Assembly (NCBI GenBank): GCA_902500205.1
Contig: GCA_902500205.1_4868.1
Reading direction: 5' to 3' (one strand)
Length of the DNA stretch: 64,000 bases
DNA from: Escherichia coli
Lineage (GTDB): Bacteria; Pseudomonadota; Gammaproteobacteria; Enterobacterales; Enterobacteriaceae
Positions 5,931-44,372 of this stretch are shown here, piece after piece. Under the pieces are notes generated by a model. That model saw nothing but the letters and a program-made list of their open reading frames with translations, ran no database searches and was not told the DNA's origin. Made by a program: the position numbers and the translations under genes. The stretch's first letter is position 1. The number at the start of each line of letters is the position of its first letter.

Positions 5931-5951
5931 AGATATATATTACTTAGGTGA
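5931..5951 (+). promoter_or_regulatory. phage promoter-like motif, class 1 (AGATATATATTACTTAGGTGA; contains TATATTAC)
   Basis: One of 8 copies of a conserved oriented motif, about 50 nt upstream of gene 6003. Confidence 0.5.
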
Positions 5952-21044: not shown

Positions 21045-22178
21045 ATGATGAACTATGAACGTAAGCACGCGTGGCAAGAAAAGCTACGCACGGGACAGAT
21101 ACATTCTGCCCAACAAGTGAAGATGTGGGTGCTGCCGCACGGCGTCATCTGCGAAATGGTCCAGGTCGGAGGATTACCTATTCTTCGAAATGGTAAATAC
21201 GATTCGATGAACACGGTACTCGCGCGCTTGCTGGCCGATGCAGGCATAATGGGTACCGTGATTTTATATTCAACCGCAACGATTCCCCAGAATCTTTCTC
21301 GCTGGTTAACGCATTGGCTTTCCAATGACCCTGGCGAGGACGATCCGTGGCTACGTTCGATGACAGTGACAACAATGGGTCAACGGCCGACGAAACCCCT
21401 CCCATTCCAGGTCAATGTAATTGAACCAGCTATTCTGGAAGCGGGTGAAGTGTTTGAAGCAATCAAACATCGATCTCGCGATGTTAGCATCAGTCAGTTT
21501 CTTATCGAAGCGAATGATGTGACTTACCGGCTGGAACCTGTACGACGTATGGACGCTCGTATCGTCGACTGCACAGAGTTCGGTTATGTCTTGCGTACAC
21601 AGGGCAACCATACCTTCCTGGCATCGATGCTCTCTCGCCGCGTGCAGGGACAGTTAGCACACTACAAAGTGTCCCCTGCTGACCTCGTCGGTACCGACGT
21701 TAAGGTCGAATACACAATGTTTACCGAAGGGAATCGACTGTGTAATTTTAAGTCTCCGGTAGTCTATCGGAGTAAGGCACTTGATGCCTTAGGCGACCAG
21801 AATGTCCCGACATACGATGGCCCCTATCCGTTTAAATCGCAAGCATCTGCAAACCGTGCGCTCCTTACGGTAACTCGGTGTAAACGCGCAGCGATCACAC
21901 TGACCGACGGGGAAATTTATGGTAAGGACACTGAGTCTGACGCAAAACTCTTTTCGTTCCGGCGTGGTGTGAAACCTGGATTGTATGCCGCGACGTTTGA
22001 AAAGGGGGATGACGTCGAGTTCTGGCAGTTCGACAGCGATTTCGCAGTAGATGCGATTGACCCAGATGCGTTAGTGAGTGTCATCACAGACCAAATCTTT
22101 TACGCGACGGGTATGAACCTGCTGGAAATCTTTTTAATGTACGATGCCAGATTACCTTCACAGTCAGTCAAAACGTAA
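21045..22178 (+). CDS. hypothetical protein (377 aa)
   Basis: GAAGGAG upstream of ATG. Confidence 0.6.
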   Translation: MMNYERKHAWQEKLRTGQIHSAQQVKMWVLPHGVICEMVQVGGLPILRNGKYDSMNTVLARLLADAGIMGTVILYSTATIPQNLSRWLTHWLSNDPGEDDPWLRSMTVTTMGQRPTKPLPFQVNVIEPAILEAGEVFEAIKHRSRDVSISQFLIEANDVTYRLEPVRRMDARIVDCTEFGYVLRTQGNHTFLASMLSRRVQGQLAHYKVSPADLVGTDVKVEYTMFTEGNRLCNFKSPVVYRSKALDALGDQNVPTYDGPYPFKSQASANRALLTVTRCKRAAITLTDGEIYGKDTESDAKLFSFRRGVKPGLYAATFEKGDDVEFWQFDSDFAVDAIDPDALVSVITDQIFYATGMNLLEIFLMYDARLPSQSVKT

Positions 22179-22188
22179 GGAGCCTCCT

Positions 22189-22698
22189 ATGTTTACTGCG
22201 CCAACCATGCGGGTGGAGCAAGGTCTTAACCTGGTGGTACACGACCAGCGGTTAATCGACCTCTGCGACACAAGCATAATTACTGCGATGATGGACCATA
22301 ACCCTTTAGGTGACTACGGAAATACCAGCGAGATTTTGGCTGTTGCTGCCGTCCTCCGTCGTATTTACGGTCAAATAACCATCGTAGATCTCTGTAACTT
22401 CATTGACAACCACAGAGATTTAACTAAAGGGTTGGTCGCACTTACTCAAGATGGGGTGTCAAGTTTTGACAGTTCTCTTGGTAATTTCCTAGACATCGGT
22501 TCCGGGTTCGACTCCGGGCTAATGTTCATCACTCGTGAACGCTACGTCGCCGTCTGGGAATTTCTGCAACGCATGGGTGTGCATGTTCCTGCAAAGATCA
22601 TGCATTACCAAACTTACGACCTGAATATTTTCGGGGAGCCAGGGTTATGGATAAAACCAGTACACCTTGGCCTTGATGGCTACACCATCAAGTGTTAA
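22189..22698 (+). CDS. hypothetical protein (start at ATG 22189)
   Basis: AAGGAG upstream of ATG 22189. Confidence 0.55.
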   Translation: MFTAPTMRVEQGLNLVVHDQRLIDLCDTSIITAMMDHNPLGDYGNTSEILAVAAVLRRIYGQITIVDLCNFIDNHRDLTKGLVALTQDGVSSFDSSLGNFLDIGSGFDSGLMFITRERYVAVWEFLQRMGVHVPAKIMHYQTYDLNIFGEPGLWIKPVHLGLDGYTIKC

Positions 22699-22705
22699 GT
22701 CACTA

Positions 22706-22756
22706 GGCGTACTCTCTTCGGGGAGTACGCCAATCTTATTTTTTTTATTTTTTTGG
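22706..22756 (+). terminator. intrinsic terminator
   Basis: Hairpin GGCGTACTC-TCTTCGG-GGAGTACGCC followed by a long T-run. Confidence 0.7.
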
Positions 22757-23289
22757 TTACTTTTTAACCAACCGGTTAAAGGGGTCTGGGAAGCATCAGA
22801 AAACGATTAGGTGGTATCGACGTAGGGTAGCTCGTTTTTGGCAGTTTATCGTTTTCTAGGGTCTGTTACGTGCGTTTTAGAGGGGGTTATGTATCGAGAC
22901 AGAGAATTTATTTTTGTCGGGGCGAGGAAATTCAGGGAATGGGGATTCAGGATTGTATGTTTTTTAACCAGTTATTAAAAACGCTCTAGAAAGCGCTAGA
23001 ACGAGATTTAACTCAGACCCAGTACACTTGGGTTCCCTATACCGGAAAATCGCGCCAGCGGGCCGCTGAGAGCGCGAGAGAGCCATTCCCGTTTCGGTTC
23101 CGAGGTGACGGTCGCGGCCGGCGACGACGATCACACGTTGGGTAGCACTTCGTGCCATGTCTGGGTGAAAACTGGATCGTTCTGTAACCGACACACACTG
23201 TCGGTTACTTACGAGTTCTTTGGGTTGTTTAATTCACTCTAAAATCCCCCTTAGGGGATAATTTAATCTAATTCTCAAAATTTCTTTTT

Positions 23290-23560
23290 AAAACAATCAC
23301 TTAGATTGTTTTTTAGATTGATCCTGTGGATCGGGTCGAAGACCCTTTCCTTATACGCGTGCGCGTGCGCGCACCCGTATCCTCCAGGATCTTTTAAAAT
23401 ATATAATAATATTAAATATAATAATACCTTTAGGTATTATATTTAATTATTATAATTATTTATATAAATAAATATATTAATATATTAAGATCTTAAAACG
23501 CGTGCGGGCGCGCGCGTGATCCTTATTAAGAGATCGTGATCGGACGGAAGACCGAGATCG
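23290..23560. promoter_or_regulatory. GATC-rich AT island flanked by alternating CG tracts; candidate origin-like or unwinding element
   Basis: 8 GATC sites within 239 bp; a roughly 105-bp almost pure A/T core (23392..23497); flanking tracts ACGCGTGCGCGTGCGCGCAC and ACGCGTGCGGGCGCGCGCGTG; inverted repeat AAAACAATC..GATTGTTTT at 23290..23312. Confidence 0.4.
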
Positions 23561-24467
23561 GGTACCCTGTGTATTTTTTACGTGGTTTCCCTATCGTGTG
23601 TTCAGACCACCACTCGATGTCCAAAAACCCATAGCTTCGGTGGTCGCCTCCCTGGTCGGTAGACTCTGACAAGTCGACCCACACCACCAACCCGTCCGGG
23701 GACGGATTTTTATTCCAACGACAAGCTCCACGAAAATCCCCGCAGAGGGACTCACTGCTGTGTGACTCACCGGCTCCTGGACGCCTACGCCTCGAGCCGG
23801 TAATTTTTTGATTACGTGAGTTTGTTGTTATATGCGAATAGCGATTGACCGCGCCAATGGTCCAATCACTTTTTAAACCCTGCACGCTAGGGCTCCAAGT
23901 CCTGGGATTGATACCCAGGACGCTTTTTCGAAAATACCTGCCGTGGTGTCTTCGACAAAGCGCAATCTAACACTGCGTGATTTATTATGTTCTGGAAAAC
24001 TTTCGCCGTGGAACAGAACCGGTGAGCGTCGGCGGGGATTCCGACAATCACCACCCATTCAGGTACTCGGTAGATAACCGACCTGCCGACGGTGCTACGT
24101 CGGGCGTAGTTCGGTTTGCGAGAGTGTCGAGAAAGTCGACTGCGCACCCATGACAAAATCCGAGTTGACCGTGGCAGCGCCAGAGGACTGGGCAGCGGAG
24201 AGACGTCGTTGAACTTACCTCCGATAGTTATCGCTGATTCCGCTCTGGCGTCGGGCCAAAACTGATTCGAATTCGGCGTTGCGTCGAAAAGGGGTCTGCG
24301 TGTAGAACCGCAGACTTGGGGGATAACTCCAAAGTGGGGTGATCGGATCTTGACGGCTCGGAATAGACGAGAGGGGTGGGTACTCCCGTTGAGAAACGAC
24401 GGTACCTGGCTGATTAAAATTTACAGATTCTGCGTGAGGTATGATAAACCAAACGGAGAATTAAACC

Positions 24468-25043
24468 ATGAACTTGTATCGCGTCGGGTTTTACCGAAAC
24501 GAGATGCCTGAATCGGTTTTGGTTGTCTTAGCCGAAAACGAGGAGCAGGCCAAATCCTTCTGGCCGGTTAGCGCAGAGCGTCCAGCGGTTGCGTGCTGCT
24601 ACGACGGCGCTGTGTCTACCCCGATGGTTACGCCTGGGGTGGTTCTGAAGCAAGGCCGATGGGAAGATTACTCCCATCCCGGTTTGGAGTTTGTTTCCGA
24701 ACCTGCCAGACATTCCTGGGAATTTCCCTCAGGCAACACCGAGACGTATTTCGGATTTCAGGTTAAACAACCTTCGACGCTCAAACTGTACCTGGTGTAC
24801 AGCGACGCCGCTACCGAAGACTACGTCGATTCCGGAATCATCGTCGGGGCAACAACCCCTGCTGCGGCATTCGCACATTGGGACGGTGATAAACCCGGAA
24901 TCGTTTCGGTCTGTGAGCTACCACTTGAAGCCGGTTTGGTTACGAACATCAAGTGTGAGCAAGGCCAGGAGCTGACTTGGATGCGCCAGGATTACCTGAC
25001 GGAAACGACATTCGAATACACACCGAGGAGGGTGACCCAATGA
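24468..25043 (+). CDS. hypothetical protein, translationally coupled to the HslV-like peptidase; N-terminus paralogous to gene 25766
   Basis: ATGA overlap with the next gene; shares MNLY...VV.A..EEQA N-terminal pattern with 25766..26008. Confidence 0.55.
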   Translation: MNLYRVGFYRNEMPESVLVVLAENEEQAKSFWPVSAERPAVACCYDGAVSTPMVTPGVVLKQGRWEDYSHPGLEFVSEPARHSWEFPSGNTETYFGFQVKQPSTLKLYLVYSDAATEDYVDSGIIVGATTPAAAFAHWDGDKPGIVSVCELPLEAGLVTNIKCEQGQELTWMRQDYLTETTFEYTPRRVTQ

Positions 25044-26008: not shown

Positions 26009-27047
26009 ACAGTGGGCTTCGGCCCACTAACCCTATTCGAGCCATGATACTTACTCAGATTGTGCGGGTTGATGTCCCGCATGAGCCGGTAGCAGCTCAG
26101 ACCTACGGTAAACCGATAAATCCGTAGCAGCCAGGTACACAAAGCACCAGGTCGCTTGTACAGGATGCTGGGTATCTGACCGGTCATAACCTCATTCGAT
26201 ACGAGACACGTTTATGCATGAAATATTCCAGTACATCAGGATGTTGATTTCAAACGTCCGGTTCTGGGTATTCAATCATGTTTGGTTTACAGGCGATGGG
26301 TTTTCCCGCAAGGGCCCCACTTACAGACTGGCGTCTCCACGACAACCGTCCCTAGGGGACAGGCAAGCACCGGCCCATTAAGCCGCCATGCTACGCCTGT
26401 AAATCCACAATCTGATAACCGAATGGGATTGAGTTCCCAGTGTTAGGGTGACTGTGTGTCACCGTAGGCGCGGTACCTCATACGGCCGGTACGCCACGAA
26501 TGTACGTGATAGCAGGTGGTGCTTGGAGACGCTAAGACCTGACCTTACGGCCAGGCTCAGAAGAAGAAGTTCATCACCCGCATTCAGAAATGAATTTAGG
26601 TTAATTATTGGAAGTGGTGAAATCGTTTACGTGATAACTTAGTAGTATGCAACGAACAATACCAGAGTGACTTTACGAGGTTACTGTGGTATATGTCGGT
26701 GCGCCGGGCAACGTGTTGCCGCAGATAAGCCCGAGGGAGCTGAATGCACTAACACACGCCGGGATGCACCGGCACCTTACAATGGGAGCGCTGTCACCAT
26801 CAGTGATGACAGGAGTGAAGGATTCGTACCTCACTCGACTGGGCGGAAGCCTGGGCGTTCCCCCATCTTCACATCATGGCCGGCTTGCCGGTTCAACGTA
26901 GACGTCTCGTAAGAGATTTCCAGTCAGGCAACTGATAACACACCTAAGCGTCGACCTTGGACGTATGGTGTCTGGTTAAGTCCCCCGAAACGGAAACCAG
27001 TAGGGGTGTGGTACGTTGAGTGTAACTATCATGATGCCATGAACAAT

Positions 27048-27117
27048 GGCTTTGTAGCTCAGGTAGGTAGAGCAGCCTCTTCGAGGAAGGTCGCCGGTTC
27101 GAGACCGGTCAAAGCAA
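27048..27117 (+). pseudogene. tRNA-like element with truncated anticodon arm (degenerate tRNA?)
   Basis: Good acceptor (6 of 7 bp), D-arm GCTC-AGGTAGGTA-GAGC and T-arm GCCGG-TTCGAGA-CCGGT, but the anticodon arm is only CCTC-TTC-GAGG. Confidence 0.3.
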
Positions 27118-27119
27118 GA

Positions 27120-27189
27120 GCAGTGAAGTTAGAGGAATTAACACCCGACTCATAATCGGATATTTCGCGGGTTCGAATCCCTGCCACTT
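27120..27189 (+). pseudogene. tRNA-like element with CAU anticodon loop (degenerate tRNA-Met/Ile-like?)
   Basis: D-arm GTTA-GAGGAAT-TAAC and anticodon arm CCGA-CTCATAA-TCGG are fine, T-loop GGGTTCGAATCCC present, but T-stem and acceptor pair poorly. Confidence 0.3.
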
Positions 27190-27572
27190 GCTCGCCCCAT
27201 TTGTGTTATCCTTATCCCGAAGGCATTCGAAATAAGACGCGTATCCACACACGGGTCAAGGGTAACACGAACCACTTCCGCGGTCACCGTGTCCATTGCC
27301 GCCTACCTGCATGGGCTGTCCTCCGACACGGTGACTTCGGGCCAACTTACAGGCCAGGGCTGTTTGGGTTTTTCTTACGCATCCATCCAGAGCCACCTCG
27401 CGCCCTAGTCTGTATACCCCTTTTCTGTTCCTGGTTTGCCAACTAAATCAATTAAGCCTGGTGCGTTGCCCTGGGAACAGAAAAACTTATTCGGTTACAC
27501 ACCGAACCCACCCACGAGGGATATGTCGTGGACCACCAATAGAAGCAGCAATAGTAGTAAGAAGGAAGCAAC

Positions 27573-41825: not shown

Positions 41826-43777
41826 GTGAGAAAGGTACCAAAATTCTACGGAATATCCGGCCGGTTGGTTAGTCAGGATAACTATTTGTCCGATTTGCAA
41901 ATAGAAGCTGCTGCCAAAGGTATTAAACCACCCACTATTATTAACGATGTCGCCGTTAACGGGGATGCGATCGAGGTTGCTGAACTTATCGATCGCATGG
42001 TACAGAACAGAATCGTTGACGAAGAACTGAACTCTGCACCGATTTGTAGTTTGGATTGTCCGGCACCGATCGCGCATCGTTACAATCTCGGTTGTAAGTG
42101 TCCGACGTGTGGCTATGTTGTAACTGAACATCGAATTGAATCCGATGTCTGGTTACGTGCACCCGATGAAATGGGTAACTTCGTCAACCCACGATTCTGG
42201 GCAATGTTCAATGCTTTCTTTAATAGCAAGTTGAAGAAGTTTGAACGTAACAAGGTCACTATCGAACGCGGTAATGACTTGATGATGTGGATGATTGACC
42301 CGTATTACCGTATAGAAGAACCAGACGGTAAACGCGCACATGCTGTGAAACGTGTATTGGAAGAACATGGTTTCGTTCGTGGCTTGCGCAATCTGGTTGA
42401 TAACCACGTTAGTATCTTTAACATCCTTACCACGCCAGAAGCCTGGAAGGAAATCTTCGCACCTAATCGGCATAACGCCGCTGAAGGTGAACGCTTACGT
42501 TTACAATGGAAGGAGCTATTCGAAACGCAACGCCATGCATTCTTCCCAAGACACTTACCGCTAATCTCCTCTAAGCTTATCGTTACTGAGGAAGGTCGTC
42601 GTGGTGTCATGGTAGACCCAGTGTTCACGGGTGCTATCGATGCGGTGAAAAATATCGCGTTACTTTATACGCGGCGTAAAGCGATCGAACCACGTTTTCT
42701 GATTAGTCGCGCTTTGAAAGCCAACCGTCAGTTAACGTACTTCCACATGGACTTCCGTCGTGAGTCTATGGAAGGTAAACCGGGTGACTATCGTGCGAAA
42801 TTGGGTTCTACCCATATCCCATTCGGTGGTCGTGCAACCATCTCACCTATCTCAGAACCACACGATGCCTGGAAGTTAAAAGCACCATGGCGTTGGATGG
42901 TTGGGTTGATGTCGACCCACATCGAGAACAAACTGCTACGACGGGGTTATTCGTCACGGCAATGTGAACGTATCGTTGCAAAAGCGGCAATGCAGTATGA
43001 CCCGCTTGTAGATGAAATCTTTAAAGAACTGATTCGTGAATCCCCAGGCGGTCTTGGGATCATGGTCATACCGCTACGTAACCCAACGCTGGTACAGTTG
43101 TCTATTCAAACGCTGTACATCGATGAAGTTGTTACCGATGTTAACCAGTGTTCGCTGCGTATCTCTGACCGTGTGATCAAGATGGCTAACGGTTCGAAAA
43201 GAGCCCCATCGGACGGGAAACCTCTGATGCGTATTCTCCTGAAATGCTGGGAAACCCTAAAGCGTATCTACCAGAAATGGGGACGAAAGTCTGAAACAAC
43301 AGATACGATGGCCTACGCTAAACAATACTGCTAACGGTTGTGATAATGGGTAATCAGCAGCGAAGCCTCGTGAGAGGAACGTTCAACGACTATCGCTGAA
43401 ATGCGAGTAGGGGTCCCAGTGGACTTCGAAGTGGGAGAACACCTAAGGCGATAGCTATGGTGAAGATATAGTCTGTGCCTTATCGAGAGATAAGGAGGGT
43501 GTCTTAGCACACCTGCTGTATACGGAAACGGTATACGGTGGACAAACAGGATTTCGATGGCGACCAGTTCCAGGTACGTTTGCCAGTCGATGAAACTGAG
43601 ATGAAGTTGGCGCTCCAATTCCGTCCAGATAACGGCTTTATGTCTTCTACTGATGTGGACCGCGTAGAACACGGCATGGTTTTACATAACGAGCTAATCA
43701 GTATGCAGAACCAGTTCCTTATTGAAGCAGATGAGGATGATGAAGAAGGCATTCCGTTGGAAGCGGTGATGGGCTAA
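41826..43777 (+). CDS. RNA polymerase beta-prime subunit, N-terminal fragment, interrupted by a group I intron (exon 1 from 41826 to about 43166, exon 2 from about 43532 to 43777)
   Basis: Zn-finger-like CSLDC..CKCPTC; NPTLVQLSIQ matches beta-prime APTLHRLGIQ; exon 2 carries DFDGDQFQVRLP (catalytic NADFDGDQ); GTG start with GAGG upstream. Confidence 0.7.
43167..43531 (+). ncRNA. group I self-splicing intron (boundaries approximate)
   Basis: Canonical core elements: Q-like AATCAGCAGC (43351), R GTTCAACGACTA (43381..43392), S AAGATATAGTC (43463..43473, identical to the Tetrahymena S element), P9 hairpin CCTTATC..GATAAGG; 5' exon can end in T and intron in G with frame restored. Confidence 0.7.
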
Positions 43778-43790
43778 TAGGAGTATTGTA

Positions 43791-44372
43791 ATGTGGCTAC
43801 AAGGTAGCACGGTGTGGACGAAACAGACCGAAGGTAGCGGGGCACTCAGCGTATTCAAAGAATCGTTTTCGCTGTCTAGCCTGGCACCCGATCTCGTTGA
43901 CCGTGTAAAAGAACATTGTCAGGACTTAATCTCACTGGAGCGTTTCCGTGAAACATTCAGTACCGCACGTAAATTACGTTATAGCGATGCGGTAGAGATG
44001 GTAAGACAGATCGAAGAGTTGGGTGAATTCCAGTTCGCCAATGCTGCTTTACAGCCATTCCTCGTTGCCATGCCGGAATATCGTAAGTTGTATAATGACG
44101 GTATGGCGACTGGCTATGAGAACGGCTTTTCGCGGTTGGATGTGTTCAAAGGCAATGCGTATATGCGTACCGATGACCACTTCCGCGAAGCAACATCGGG
44201 CATTTCGACGAAGTACGATGAAGATAAGATTTGGCAATGGGCTACCAATGAAGATCGTGCAGTACGACTGAGTCGAATCGATAAAGTGGATATTCAACTT
44301 AACTGGGCACGCATGTCAGCTTTCGACTGGGAAGATGGTGATCCCTGTTCGGAACTTGGCGCGACGTGTTAA
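43791..44372 (+). CDS. hypothetical protein (193 aa)
   Basis: AGGAG upstream of ATG; terminator downstream. Confidence 0.55.
   Translation: MWLQGSTVWTKQTEGSGALSVFKESFSLSSLAPDLVDRVKEHCQDLISLERFRETFSTARKLRYSDAVEMVRQIEELGEFQFANAALQPFLVAMPEYRKLYNDGMATGYENGFSRLDVFKGNAYMRTDDHFREATSGISTKYDEDKIWQWATNEDRAVRLSRIDKVDIQLNWARMSAFDWEDGDPCSELGATC

Follow-up and report, generated by a model that had tools for sequence, protein, structure and literature searches.

The window analyzed in this study, that is, the whole 64,000-nucleotide (nt) stretch of contig GCA_902500205.1_4868.1 from an Escherichia coli assembly, derives from the genome of a Seoulvirus, one of the SPN3US-like jumbo phages that form a nucleus and infect enterobacteria. 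We focus on positions 22757-24467, a gap between a gene ending at 22698 and a gene starting at 24468, which an initial inspection without database searches (the sequence-only reading) had singled out as having no credible protein-coding capacity. Its coordinates were correct, and the low coding capacity was confirmed: the longest start-to-stop open reading frame (ORF) encodes 119 amino acids (aa) on the minus strand (23526-23885), and the remaining ORFs reach at most 89 aa, overlap one another and are visibly Arg-rich. The blocks of high guanine-plus-cytosine (GC) content, the hairpins and the AT island reported there were also found. The GC content ranges from 27% to 60% inside the gap and falls to 5% over 100 nt and to 0% over 40 nt in the AT island, and 10 terminator-like hairpins were counted versus 2.5 ± 1.4 in shuffled sequences (approximately fourfold), eight of the ten being on the plus strand. 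The gap had also been called conspicuous; this holds for its low coding density, but it is not the only such stretch, since a second gene-poor stretch of the window, with at least one tRNA, lies at 26009-27572. The analysis presented below suggests that the gap is probably a conserved non-coding locus of SPN3US-like jumbo phages, in which RNA genes are arranged around one DNA-level element. The features of the locus, from left to right, are the following:

22706-22731, with a T-run to 22756, plus strand: intrinsic terminator belonging to the upstream gene and bounding the gap on its left side; all relatives have a covarying equivalent.
22757-22960, plus strand: G-rich extension of approximately 200 nt, aligned only in three Seoulvirus sequences; GC skew +0.27 to +0.42.
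Approximately 22961-23270, plus strand: left structured-RNA module with covarying hairpins (14-phage alignment A7).
23017-23033, 23140-23156 and 23184-23208, plus strand: hairpins of the left module, supported by covariation.
23244-23259, plus strand: terminator-like hairpin of the left module, with homologous plus-strand hairpins in relatives.
23271-23351, no strand assigned: spacer with the conserved sequence TTTCTTTTTAAAACA (23281-23295), the near-palindrome GATCCTGTGGATC (23320-23332) and a hairpin (23333-23345).
23311-23560, no strand assigned: GATC cluster, eight sites per 250 bp, three to the left of the island and five to the right.
23352-23374, no strand assigned: left GC clamp, 23 nt of perfectly alternating purines and pyrimidines, self-complementary and prone to form Z-DNA.
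23385-23397, no strand assigned: left island border CAGGATCTTTTAA, found unchanged in 14 of the 16 related sequences that were compared.
Approximately 23398-23490, no strand assigned: AT island, a candidate DNA-unwinding or cruciform element.
23498-23517, no strand assigned: right GC clamp, followed at 23518-23532 by the conserved GATCCTTATTAAGAG, the invariant right border.
23578-23600, plus strand: promoter-like element P1, consisting of a T-run, TTAC, 15 nt and TGTG; predicted start at G 23600.
23600-23809, plus strand: small RNA unit A, P1 being followed by two terminators of the hairpin-plus-U-run type.
23692-23714 (T1) and 23768-23809 (T2), plus strand: terminators of RNA A, with predicted products of approximately 115 and 210 nt.
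23812-23834, plus strand: promoter-like element P1b, TTAC, 15 nt and TATG, directly after T2; predicted start at G 23834.
23834-24163, plus strand: 5' part of RNA B (alignment A8), with hairpin 3 at 23899-23921.
24164-24417, plus strand: R1 domain, 254 nt with approximately ten helices (alignments A4 and A6; covariance model).
24421-24443, plus strand: promoter-like element P2, TTAC, 15 nt and TATG, which would leave the mRNA of gene 24468 a 24-nt leader.

Matches to the region 22600-24600 were found in 63 phage records, the closest being Salmonella, Escherichia and Proteus phages with 95-98% identity. The closest record, SPLA5c, carries no annotation between the homologues of the two flanking genes, and the gap is likewise devoid of any annotation in nine close relatives (at least 94% identical, with a match spanning the entire gap). 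In more distant relatives, only short hypothetical ORFs were annotated, and these overlap conserved RNA structures. The gap, with the same genes on either side, is present in Seoulvirus (SPAsTU, pEa_SNUABM_29), Erskinevirus (phiEaH2, Asesino) and Machinavirus (pEa_SNUABM_9, pEa_SNUABM_8, Caitlin, ChrisDB, Huxley, pSal-SNUABM-04), always with a terminator before it and the HslV-like gene and tRNA-Trp after it; the gene directly downstream of R1 differs between lineages. In Wellingtonvirus, the gap is only partly syntenic. Three cores (23013-23043, 23344-23543 and 24268-24420) can be recognized by blastn in all these lineages, and their order and spacing are fixed: a hairpin, designated (a), is followed by the island 360-375 nt further on and by the R1 core after another 550-975 nt. 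A search of IMG/VR, JGI metagenomes and GTDB genomes with anchors of 16 to 19 nt returned only contigs of SPN3US-like jumbo phages and chance matches, and protein-anchored searches for the locus in IMG/VR returned only 1 and 3 loci. The flanking proteins had no Pfam match, and in PHROGs they fall into families without an assigned function, except for the HslV-like peptidase.

Comparison with related phages, which the sequence-only reading had proposed, demonstrated that the gap is conserved, with approximately 40 indels of mostly non-triplet length. Its nucleotide identity is 72.5% to SPAsTU and 70.0% to pEa29; for comparison, identity is 74-85% in the two upstream genes and approximately 50% in the downstream HslV-like gene. 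The substitutions in the gap are spread over the three frame positions as 153/133/148, compared to 58/49/172 at codon positions 1/2/3 of a neighboring 377-aa gene, in which indels are either lacking or 3 nt long. Translated matches of the stop-free stretches to relatives occur in all six frames and are fragmentary, with 30-60% identity, which is below that of the DNA. Thus, neither a conserved open frame nor a predominance of third-position substitutions or triplet indels was found in the gap. Frame-specific conservation between lineages was absent, and homology revealed no conserved protein-coding gene, the finding that would have spoken against the sequence-only reading, although Pfam and PHROG searches were not run on the short ORFs of the gap. 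Conservation without codon periodicity, combined with non-triplet indels, points to conserved non-coding sequence and excludes a decayed gene. The pattern of changes indicates that the gap is under purifying selection, and it almost certainly encodes no protein.

The sequence-only reading had also considered a decayed gene or a mobile element. Such a remnant, or a set of concealed small protein genes, would account for the numerous short ORFs and for the hypothetical proteins annotated here in some relatives, and an HNH endonuclease gene, the only mobility gene met in homologues of the gap, was inserted into the gap of Wellington. However, synteny of the gap extends over at least three genera, and the gap is conserved to the same degree as its neighbors without any reading-frame signal; its position and internal order are kept in all lineages, no presence/absence variation was observed, and neither terminal repeats nor target duplications were found. 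We therefore regard this explanation as extremely improbable. Two of the four readings offered at the outset, non-coding RNA and a replication or packaging signal, survive.

Among the conserved plus-strand structured RNAs, which are the well-supported part of the results, the R1 domain stands out. A consensus structure was obtained with RNAalifold from a 13-phage alignment over 24121-24451, and it comprises 56 pairs in 10 helices. Compensatory double changes were found in 22 of the 56 pairs, versus 3-6 in slid controls, and 94.8% of the cells were paired, versus 38-50% when the 3' partners were slid by 1-3 columns; none of the 500 column shuffles reached either the observed pairing or the observed covariation score. 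The domain is a multi-way junction, in which a closing helix joins the regions of 24169-24172 and 24351-24354 over a span of approximately 180 nt and is followed by an invariant hairpin (CUCG-GAAUAGA-CGAG) and then by a long hairpin capped by a tetraloop. This last hairpin (24387-24398) ends, depending on the phage, in GAGA, GUGA, GGGA or GCGA, a loop of the GNRA type on the plus strand only. G·U pairs number 111 against 9 A·C, an excess which identifies the plus strand as the folded strand of R1. The domain also contains an invariant core, CGGCUCGG...GACGAGAGGGG (24354-24376), and long invariant unpaired runs, for example AUUCGGC, CUUAC and UCUUG-CGGCUCGG-(3-4 nt)-GACGAGAGGGG. A covariance model built from 19 distinct sequences found a single copy in the window, at 24164-24417 with 250.6 bits, and also picked up diverged copies in Wellington-like contigs; in our sequence scans, R1 was found only in contigs of related jumbo phages. 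In Wellington itself (L042, 3237-3746), the HNH endonuclease gene is inserted just upstream of the 3' sub-domain of R1, and R1 is reduced to its last 85-115 nt, while a Wellington-like metagenome contig (L078) carries a diverged full-length R1.

Similar signals were obtained on the other side of the island. In the hairpins of the left module, 94.5% of the cells were paired versus 20-49% in slid controls, compensatory double changes occurred in 8 of 26 pairs versus 1-4 in the controls, and G·U pairs outnumbered A·C by 51 to 3. Upstream of this module, the G-rich extension opens with the first copy of TTTTTAACCA (22761-22770), and no sequence of phiEaH2 (Erskinevirus) or pEa9 (Machinavirus) aligned with the extension; the second copy (22961-22970) marks the beginning of the module and lies approximately 400-455 nt from the island in most lineages. 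The 5' part of RNA B contains invariant single-stranded motifs, CTAACAC included, and the length of the middle section of RNA B varies among lineages. Here, hairpin 3 is followed by GCUUUUUCGA, which resembles a terminator tail; it pairs, however, with UCGACAAAGC 30 nt downstream. The corresponding helix Px, in which GCTTTTTCGA (23922-23931) pairs with TCGACAAAGC (23952-23961), has compensatory changes in 6 of its 13 pairs, which places the U-run after hairpin 3 in a helix and not in a simple terminator tail. In summary, compensatory pairs in excess of the controls together with strand asymmetry characterize both R1 and the left module, with Px adding its 6 of 13 pairs. The plus-strand covariation on both sides of the island supports the non-coding RNA suggested by the sequence-only reading, and the gap very probably contains functional structured RNA read from the plus strand.

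Covariation by itself cannot separate RNA from single-stranded DNA, and the structures adjoin a candidate unwinding element; hence, the hairpins could instead work as single-stranded DNA, for example as priming or loading signals beside an origin. This alternative appears very unlikely to us. The structures extend beyond 900 nt from the island and comprise a multi-way junction, closed over approximately 180 nt, a conserved GNRA tetraloop and 111 G·U pairs, which would be far weaker as G·T in DNA. In addition, promoter-like and terminator-like signals bracket them on the same strand.

The comparison with Rfam, also proposed at the outset, gave no match for the gap. With Rfam 15, nothing rose above noise at 22000-25000 (E ≤1), in the gap at the whole-window gathering score, or in four relatives; the families covered include GOLLD, ROOL, OLE, HEARO, T-box, group I/II introns, RNase P, tmRNA and 6S. 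ARAGORN detected no tRNA or tmRNA in the gap. A T-box identity, considered because of a likeness by eye of GGUACCGCG and AGGGGUGG, was rejected, as the Rfam T-box model gave no match. Literature searches returned no description of the locus. With its strong comparative support, R1 is to be considered a new family of large structured RNA without an Rfam counterpart, and the locus thereby adds at least one such family to the jumbo phages, on whose non-coding RNAs little is known; a 2024 study describes the small RNAs of giant phages as a largely unexplored field (PMC11512511). The finding also bears on annotation, as in several GenBank records hypothetical proteins sit on the RNA structures. Such genes were noted in Asesino (L004, 3494-3937), phiEaH2 (L005, 3639-4117), Huxley (L043, 2615-2815 and 3195-3608) and pEa_SNUABM_29 (L003, 4704-4982), and short hypothetical-protein genes placed over conserved RNA structures are probably over-annotations.

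The signals by which these RNAs might be transcribed were examined on the right flank. In each of the ten lineages examined, a regular-expression search located P1 approximately 50-70 nt beyond the right clamp; the element is also visible in four more Machinavirus-type sequences, and in metaL078 it has a 17-nt spacer. A counterpart of the terminator T2 was also predicted at the corresponding position of Erskinevirus and Machinavirus; its stem differs in sequence and covaries. Unit A is absent in Huxley-type Machinavirus, where P1 runs directly into the next unit. P1b is conserved in SPAsTU, pEa29 and phiEaH2, and P2 is present in the Seoulvirus, Erskinevirus, Caitlin/ChrisDB and Wellington lineages and absent where the next gene abuts R1 (pEa9, pEa8, Huxley and pSal04). 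Terminator-like hairpins lie predominantly on the plus strand in relatives as well, with 7 of 7 in phiEaH2 (L005) and 4 of 5 in pEa9 (L006), where the fifth is a two-way terminator of the upstream gene. Ten copies of the motif TTAC-N15-T[AG]TG were counted in the window and 4.3 ± 2.2 in shuffled sequences, a modest enrichment; three copies fall in the gap, two before the tRNA region (26627 and 26673) and one before gene 47508. In phiKZ, middle promoters have an AT-rich element near -24 and a TACT motif at -22, and late promoters have an obligatory T(-3)ATG(+1) (PMC7598289; PMC8244752). The motif of the gap resembles a union of both features of the phiKZ non-virion RNA polymerase promoters, although P1 in the window has TGTG, unlike the TATG of phiKZ. 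Judged by sequence resemblance, P1, P1b and P2 are candidate promoters of the phiKZ non-virion type, and there is a reasonable likelihood that these three are in use.

A different motif, GATATTAYCT..GTGA, is found 23 times in the window against 8 expected, and a scan of the whole window placed no copy in 22757-24467. Plus-strand sites in intergenic spacers are at 5936, 28549, 31513, 39741, 39834, 48298, 49714 and 53457, and the motif is also found at the end of the gaps of CR5 and Phobos. In this phage group, it probably serves as the early promoter, used by the virion RNA polymerase. The sequence CACTTTTTAACCAA was considered as a general promoter and rejected, as it does not recur within the window.

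We propose that the right flank would be transcribed by the phage non-virion RNA polymerase from the TTAC-N15-T[A/G]TG promoters. P1 would give rise to a terminator-bounded small RNA of approximately 115 or 210 nt, and P1b to a longer RNA of approximately 585 nt ending in R1. RNA B, which has no terminator, probably runs on into the operon of the HslV-like gene and tRNA-Trp or is processed from that transcript. The multi-way junction, the GNRA loop and the long invariant single-stranded runs suggest that R1 may fold into a defined tertiary structure binding a protein or a ligand. RNAs that are large and highly conserved, with multi-way junctions and numerous invariant unpaired positions, have often proved to be ribozymes, riboswitches or ribonucleoprotein scaffolds. 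As modeled, R1 appears to be neither a small RNA that acts by base pairing nor a simple primer.

The working model suggested by these features is a structured RNA, either stand-alone or processed, with a binding partner, and its main rival is a long cis-acting leader: RNA B and R1 would together form a riboswitch-like or protein-binding element controlling the operon of the HslV-like peptidase and tRNA-Trp. No terminator separates R1 from the next gene; in pEa9, pEa8, Huxley and pSal04, a mere 25 nt or so separate the end of R1 from a Shine-Dalgarno sequence and ATG, and in every lineage the HslV-like gene and tRNA-Trp are found downstream. However, the directly downstream gene is not constant between lineages, the promoter-like motif P2 separates R1 from the next gene in most of them, and neither an alternative terminator/anti-terminator pairing nor one hiding the ribosome-binding site was identified. 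A length of approximately 585 nt would also be unusual for a leader, and we consider this explanation rather unlikely.

More specifically, RNA B and R1 might represent a new class of large functional RNA of nucleus-forming enterobacterial jumbo phages, such as a ribozyme, the RNA component of a ribonucleoprotein or an RNA that assembles with itself in the manner of ROOL/GOLLD, maybe tied to the AT palindrome, for example by marking or licensing an origin in the phage nucleus; we would attach only a small likelihood to this proposal. GOLLD and ROOL (RF01998 and RF03087) are highly structured RNAs of several hundred nt, often encoded by phages near tRNA genes and without known function. RNA B and R1 are similarly large, structured, phage-encoded and located near a tRNA gene, being 1.2 kb upstream of tRNA-Trp; they differ in having no Rfam match at E ≤1 in the window and relatives, and the hosts of enterobacterial jumbo phages are also different. 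Another comparison is offered by the stable RNAs C and D of phage T4 (rnaC and rnaD), which are structured, have no assigned function and lie beside tRNA genes, with which they are probably co-transcribed. The RNAs of the gap share with them the phage origin, the structure and the proximity to tRNA genes. However, rnaC and rnaD measure approximately 120-140 nt and have no detectable similarity to the RNAs of the gap, which, unlike them, flank an AT-rich palindrome and have promoter-like motifs of their own.

Between the two RNA-bearing flanks lies the AT island. It consists of two imperfect palindromes, centered on ATACCTTTAGGTAT (23424-23437) and at approximately 23463, and is the only 100-nt stretch with at most 25% GC in the 64-kb window. 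It is also the least stable 100 bp of the window, with a free energy (dG) of -87.9 kcal/mol against a mean of -140.2 (standard deviation 6.2; z 8.5); the next least stable 100 bp elsewhere has -117.4. Folded as a single strand, the region 23340-23540 reaches a dG of -37.5 compared to -19.9 ± 3.4 in shuffles (z -5.2), with both clamps pairing together around the AT hairpins. The left clamp is the longest alternating purine-pyrimidine run in 64 kb, and its position is always occupied in relatives by a GC-rich palindrome of differing sequence. The densest 250-bp GATC stretch of the window is the cluster at 23311-23560, which is all the more prominent as GATC is scarce in the window as a whole (162 sites versus 250 expected from length alone); a cluster is also present in SPAsTU, pEa29, phiEaH2, IMG236909 and Huxley. 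Long-range pairing between the modules through the inverted repeats I11, I13 and I18 was rejected because these are not conserved in relatives.

The ease of melting, the capacity to form a cruciform, the flank prone to Z-DNA and the clustered Dam sites together are what would be expected of a site of DNA opening or cutting. The earlier suggestion of a replication or packaging signal is thus plausible in so far as it concerns a DNA-level signal at the AT island, where it is deduced from instability, the palindrome, the GC clamps and the GATC cluster. As to its nature, a replication origin is a real possibility and is ranked first; a packaging site is ranked second. For an origin, a unique and easily melted AT-rich element is present (z 8.5). 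The duplex would be opened at the island, as in origins that combine a promoter with an AT-rich region, and opening might be aided by transcription that starts approximately 110 nt to the right and heads away. The locus is thereby a concrete candidate for duplex opening in jumbo phages, with one AT-rich palindrome per 64 kb that is conserved in four genera. Literature searches returned no mapped replication origin for nucleus-forming jumbo phages (phiKZ and SPN3US group), and we know of none in these phages.

Known origins offer partial parallels. The primary origin of T7 consists of two promoters and a 61-bp AT-rich region, and oriF/ori34 of T4 consist of a middle promoter and an unwinding element. 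The island and P1 resemble them in that a promoter of the phage polymerase lies beside a short, very AT-rich region in a phage supplying its own RNA polymerase; however, the T7 and T4 promoters fire into the AT-rich region, whereas P1 fires away from it, and no promoter towards the island was identified. With oriC of E. coli, the island shares a unique AT-rich element within the densest GATC cluster, in phages of Dam-positive enterobacteria. In contrast to oriC, neither DnaA boxes nor 13-mer repeats are recognizable at the island by eye (no dedicated scan was made), replication takes place in a phage-made compartment that possibly excludes Dam and SeqA, and the cluster is weak in two lineages. 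The oriS/oriL of herpes simplex virus are AT-rich palindromic origins flanked by transcription units, non-coding transcripts included (PMC10541914). The likeness lies in an AT-rich imperfect palindrome with flanking repeats between transcription units and in a nucleus-like compartment, but this is an analogy without homology, and the island has no defined initiator-binding boxes.

A start site for headful packaging (pac) of the kind found in phage P1 is the second possibility. It would be consistent with the short GATC repeats on both sides of the AT-rich center, three to the left and five to the right, and headful packaging has been reported for these phages (PMC6256631). The likeness to P1 pac lies in these repeats on either side of a central region, but the bases flanking GATC at the island are other than those of the P1 hexamer TGATCA/G, and the number of repeats is not conserved; moreover, no terminase small subunit or cut site is known in the group. 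At first sight, the starts of GenBank records also point to packaging, since seven records begin inside the gap, SPN3US at 23284 and the six others in the island at 23419-23491 (SPFM2, Proteus phage 7, SEGD1, EC001, JN03 and SPFM16). Such starts are, however, poor evidence. The EC001 record is cut cleanly at 23482/23483; the record of Proteus phage 7 lacks 35 nt of the island (23386-23420), which indicates an assembly break in the AT-rich palindrome; the coordinates of multi-piece SPFM matches are unreliable; and in the Erwinia phage records of Brigham Young University (BYU), base 1 was set by alignment to the family (PMC6256631). The record starts, which at least in part reflect assembly breaks, were therefore rejected as physical DNA ends, and we judge packaging to be an improbable function of the island. 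The site is in any case hard to assemble, as several assemblies break or lose sequence at the AT palindrome; the records concerned are MT679221.1, MN445185.1, KU726251.1, MT799840.1, LR535921.1 and LR535915.1, several of which start inside it. It may also be locally hypervariable; the GC clamps differ between phages that are otherwise approximately 98% identical, the left clamp, for example, being GCGCGCAC versus GCGCACAC.

Several observations weigh against the proposed arrangement of RNA genes around a DNA-level element, and in particular against an origin at the island. Within the 64 kb, the cumulative GC skew shows no turning point at the gap, although this is a weak test, because phage skew follows transcription. 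At the island, only short GATC repeats (GATCGG three times and GATCC/GGATC) and the two GC clamps were found, with no clear iterons, and we know of no initiator protein for it. The phage nucleus excludes many host proteins; if Dam and SeqA of the host are kept out, the GATC cluster may have another meaning, and the cluster is weak in two Machinavirus lineages, pEa9 and Caitlin. Searches of the literature and data returned no transcriptome of an SPN3US-like phage, so that transcription, transcript ends and promoters are given here as predictions. The case for structure is built on covariation over 13-19 sequences from few lineages, which limits the number of independent changes, and the folding energy of R1 as a single sequence is unexceptional (z -1.4) and was not used as evidence. 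On the left flank, TTTTTAACCA does not recur elsewhere in the window, no promoter of the left module was found, and the hairpin at 22982-23003 with its T-run would read as a minus-strand terminator; on the plus strand, the same place shows an A-run and then a covarying hairpin, located where the left RNA module has its 5' end. Finally, in Derbicusvirus (CR5 and Phobos), the gap measures only approximately 550 nt and contains an unrelated AT-rich repeat region without R1.

Some further observations concern other parts of the window. The ORF at 22144-22698 overlaps the gene upstream of it; its homologue in relatives was annotated with 510 nt, which places the start at 22189. Within the second gene-poor stretch, Rfam detected a second tRNA at 27048-27117 on the plus strand (36.4 bits), which was not reported by ARAGORN, and two TTAC-N15-TATG motifs, those at 26627 and 26673, lie upstream of it. 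A further tRNA-like sequence was noted by eye at approximately 27130-27200, and relatives have tRNA-Tyr or tRNA-Cys in this region. The hypothetical protein annotated on the minus strand of SPLA5c over part of 26009-27572 is probably spurious. In addition, a group I catalytic intron was identified at 43174-43495 on the plus strand (RF00028, 69.4 bits, E 1.6e-15), at the junction of the ORFs 41826-43334 and 43791-44372.

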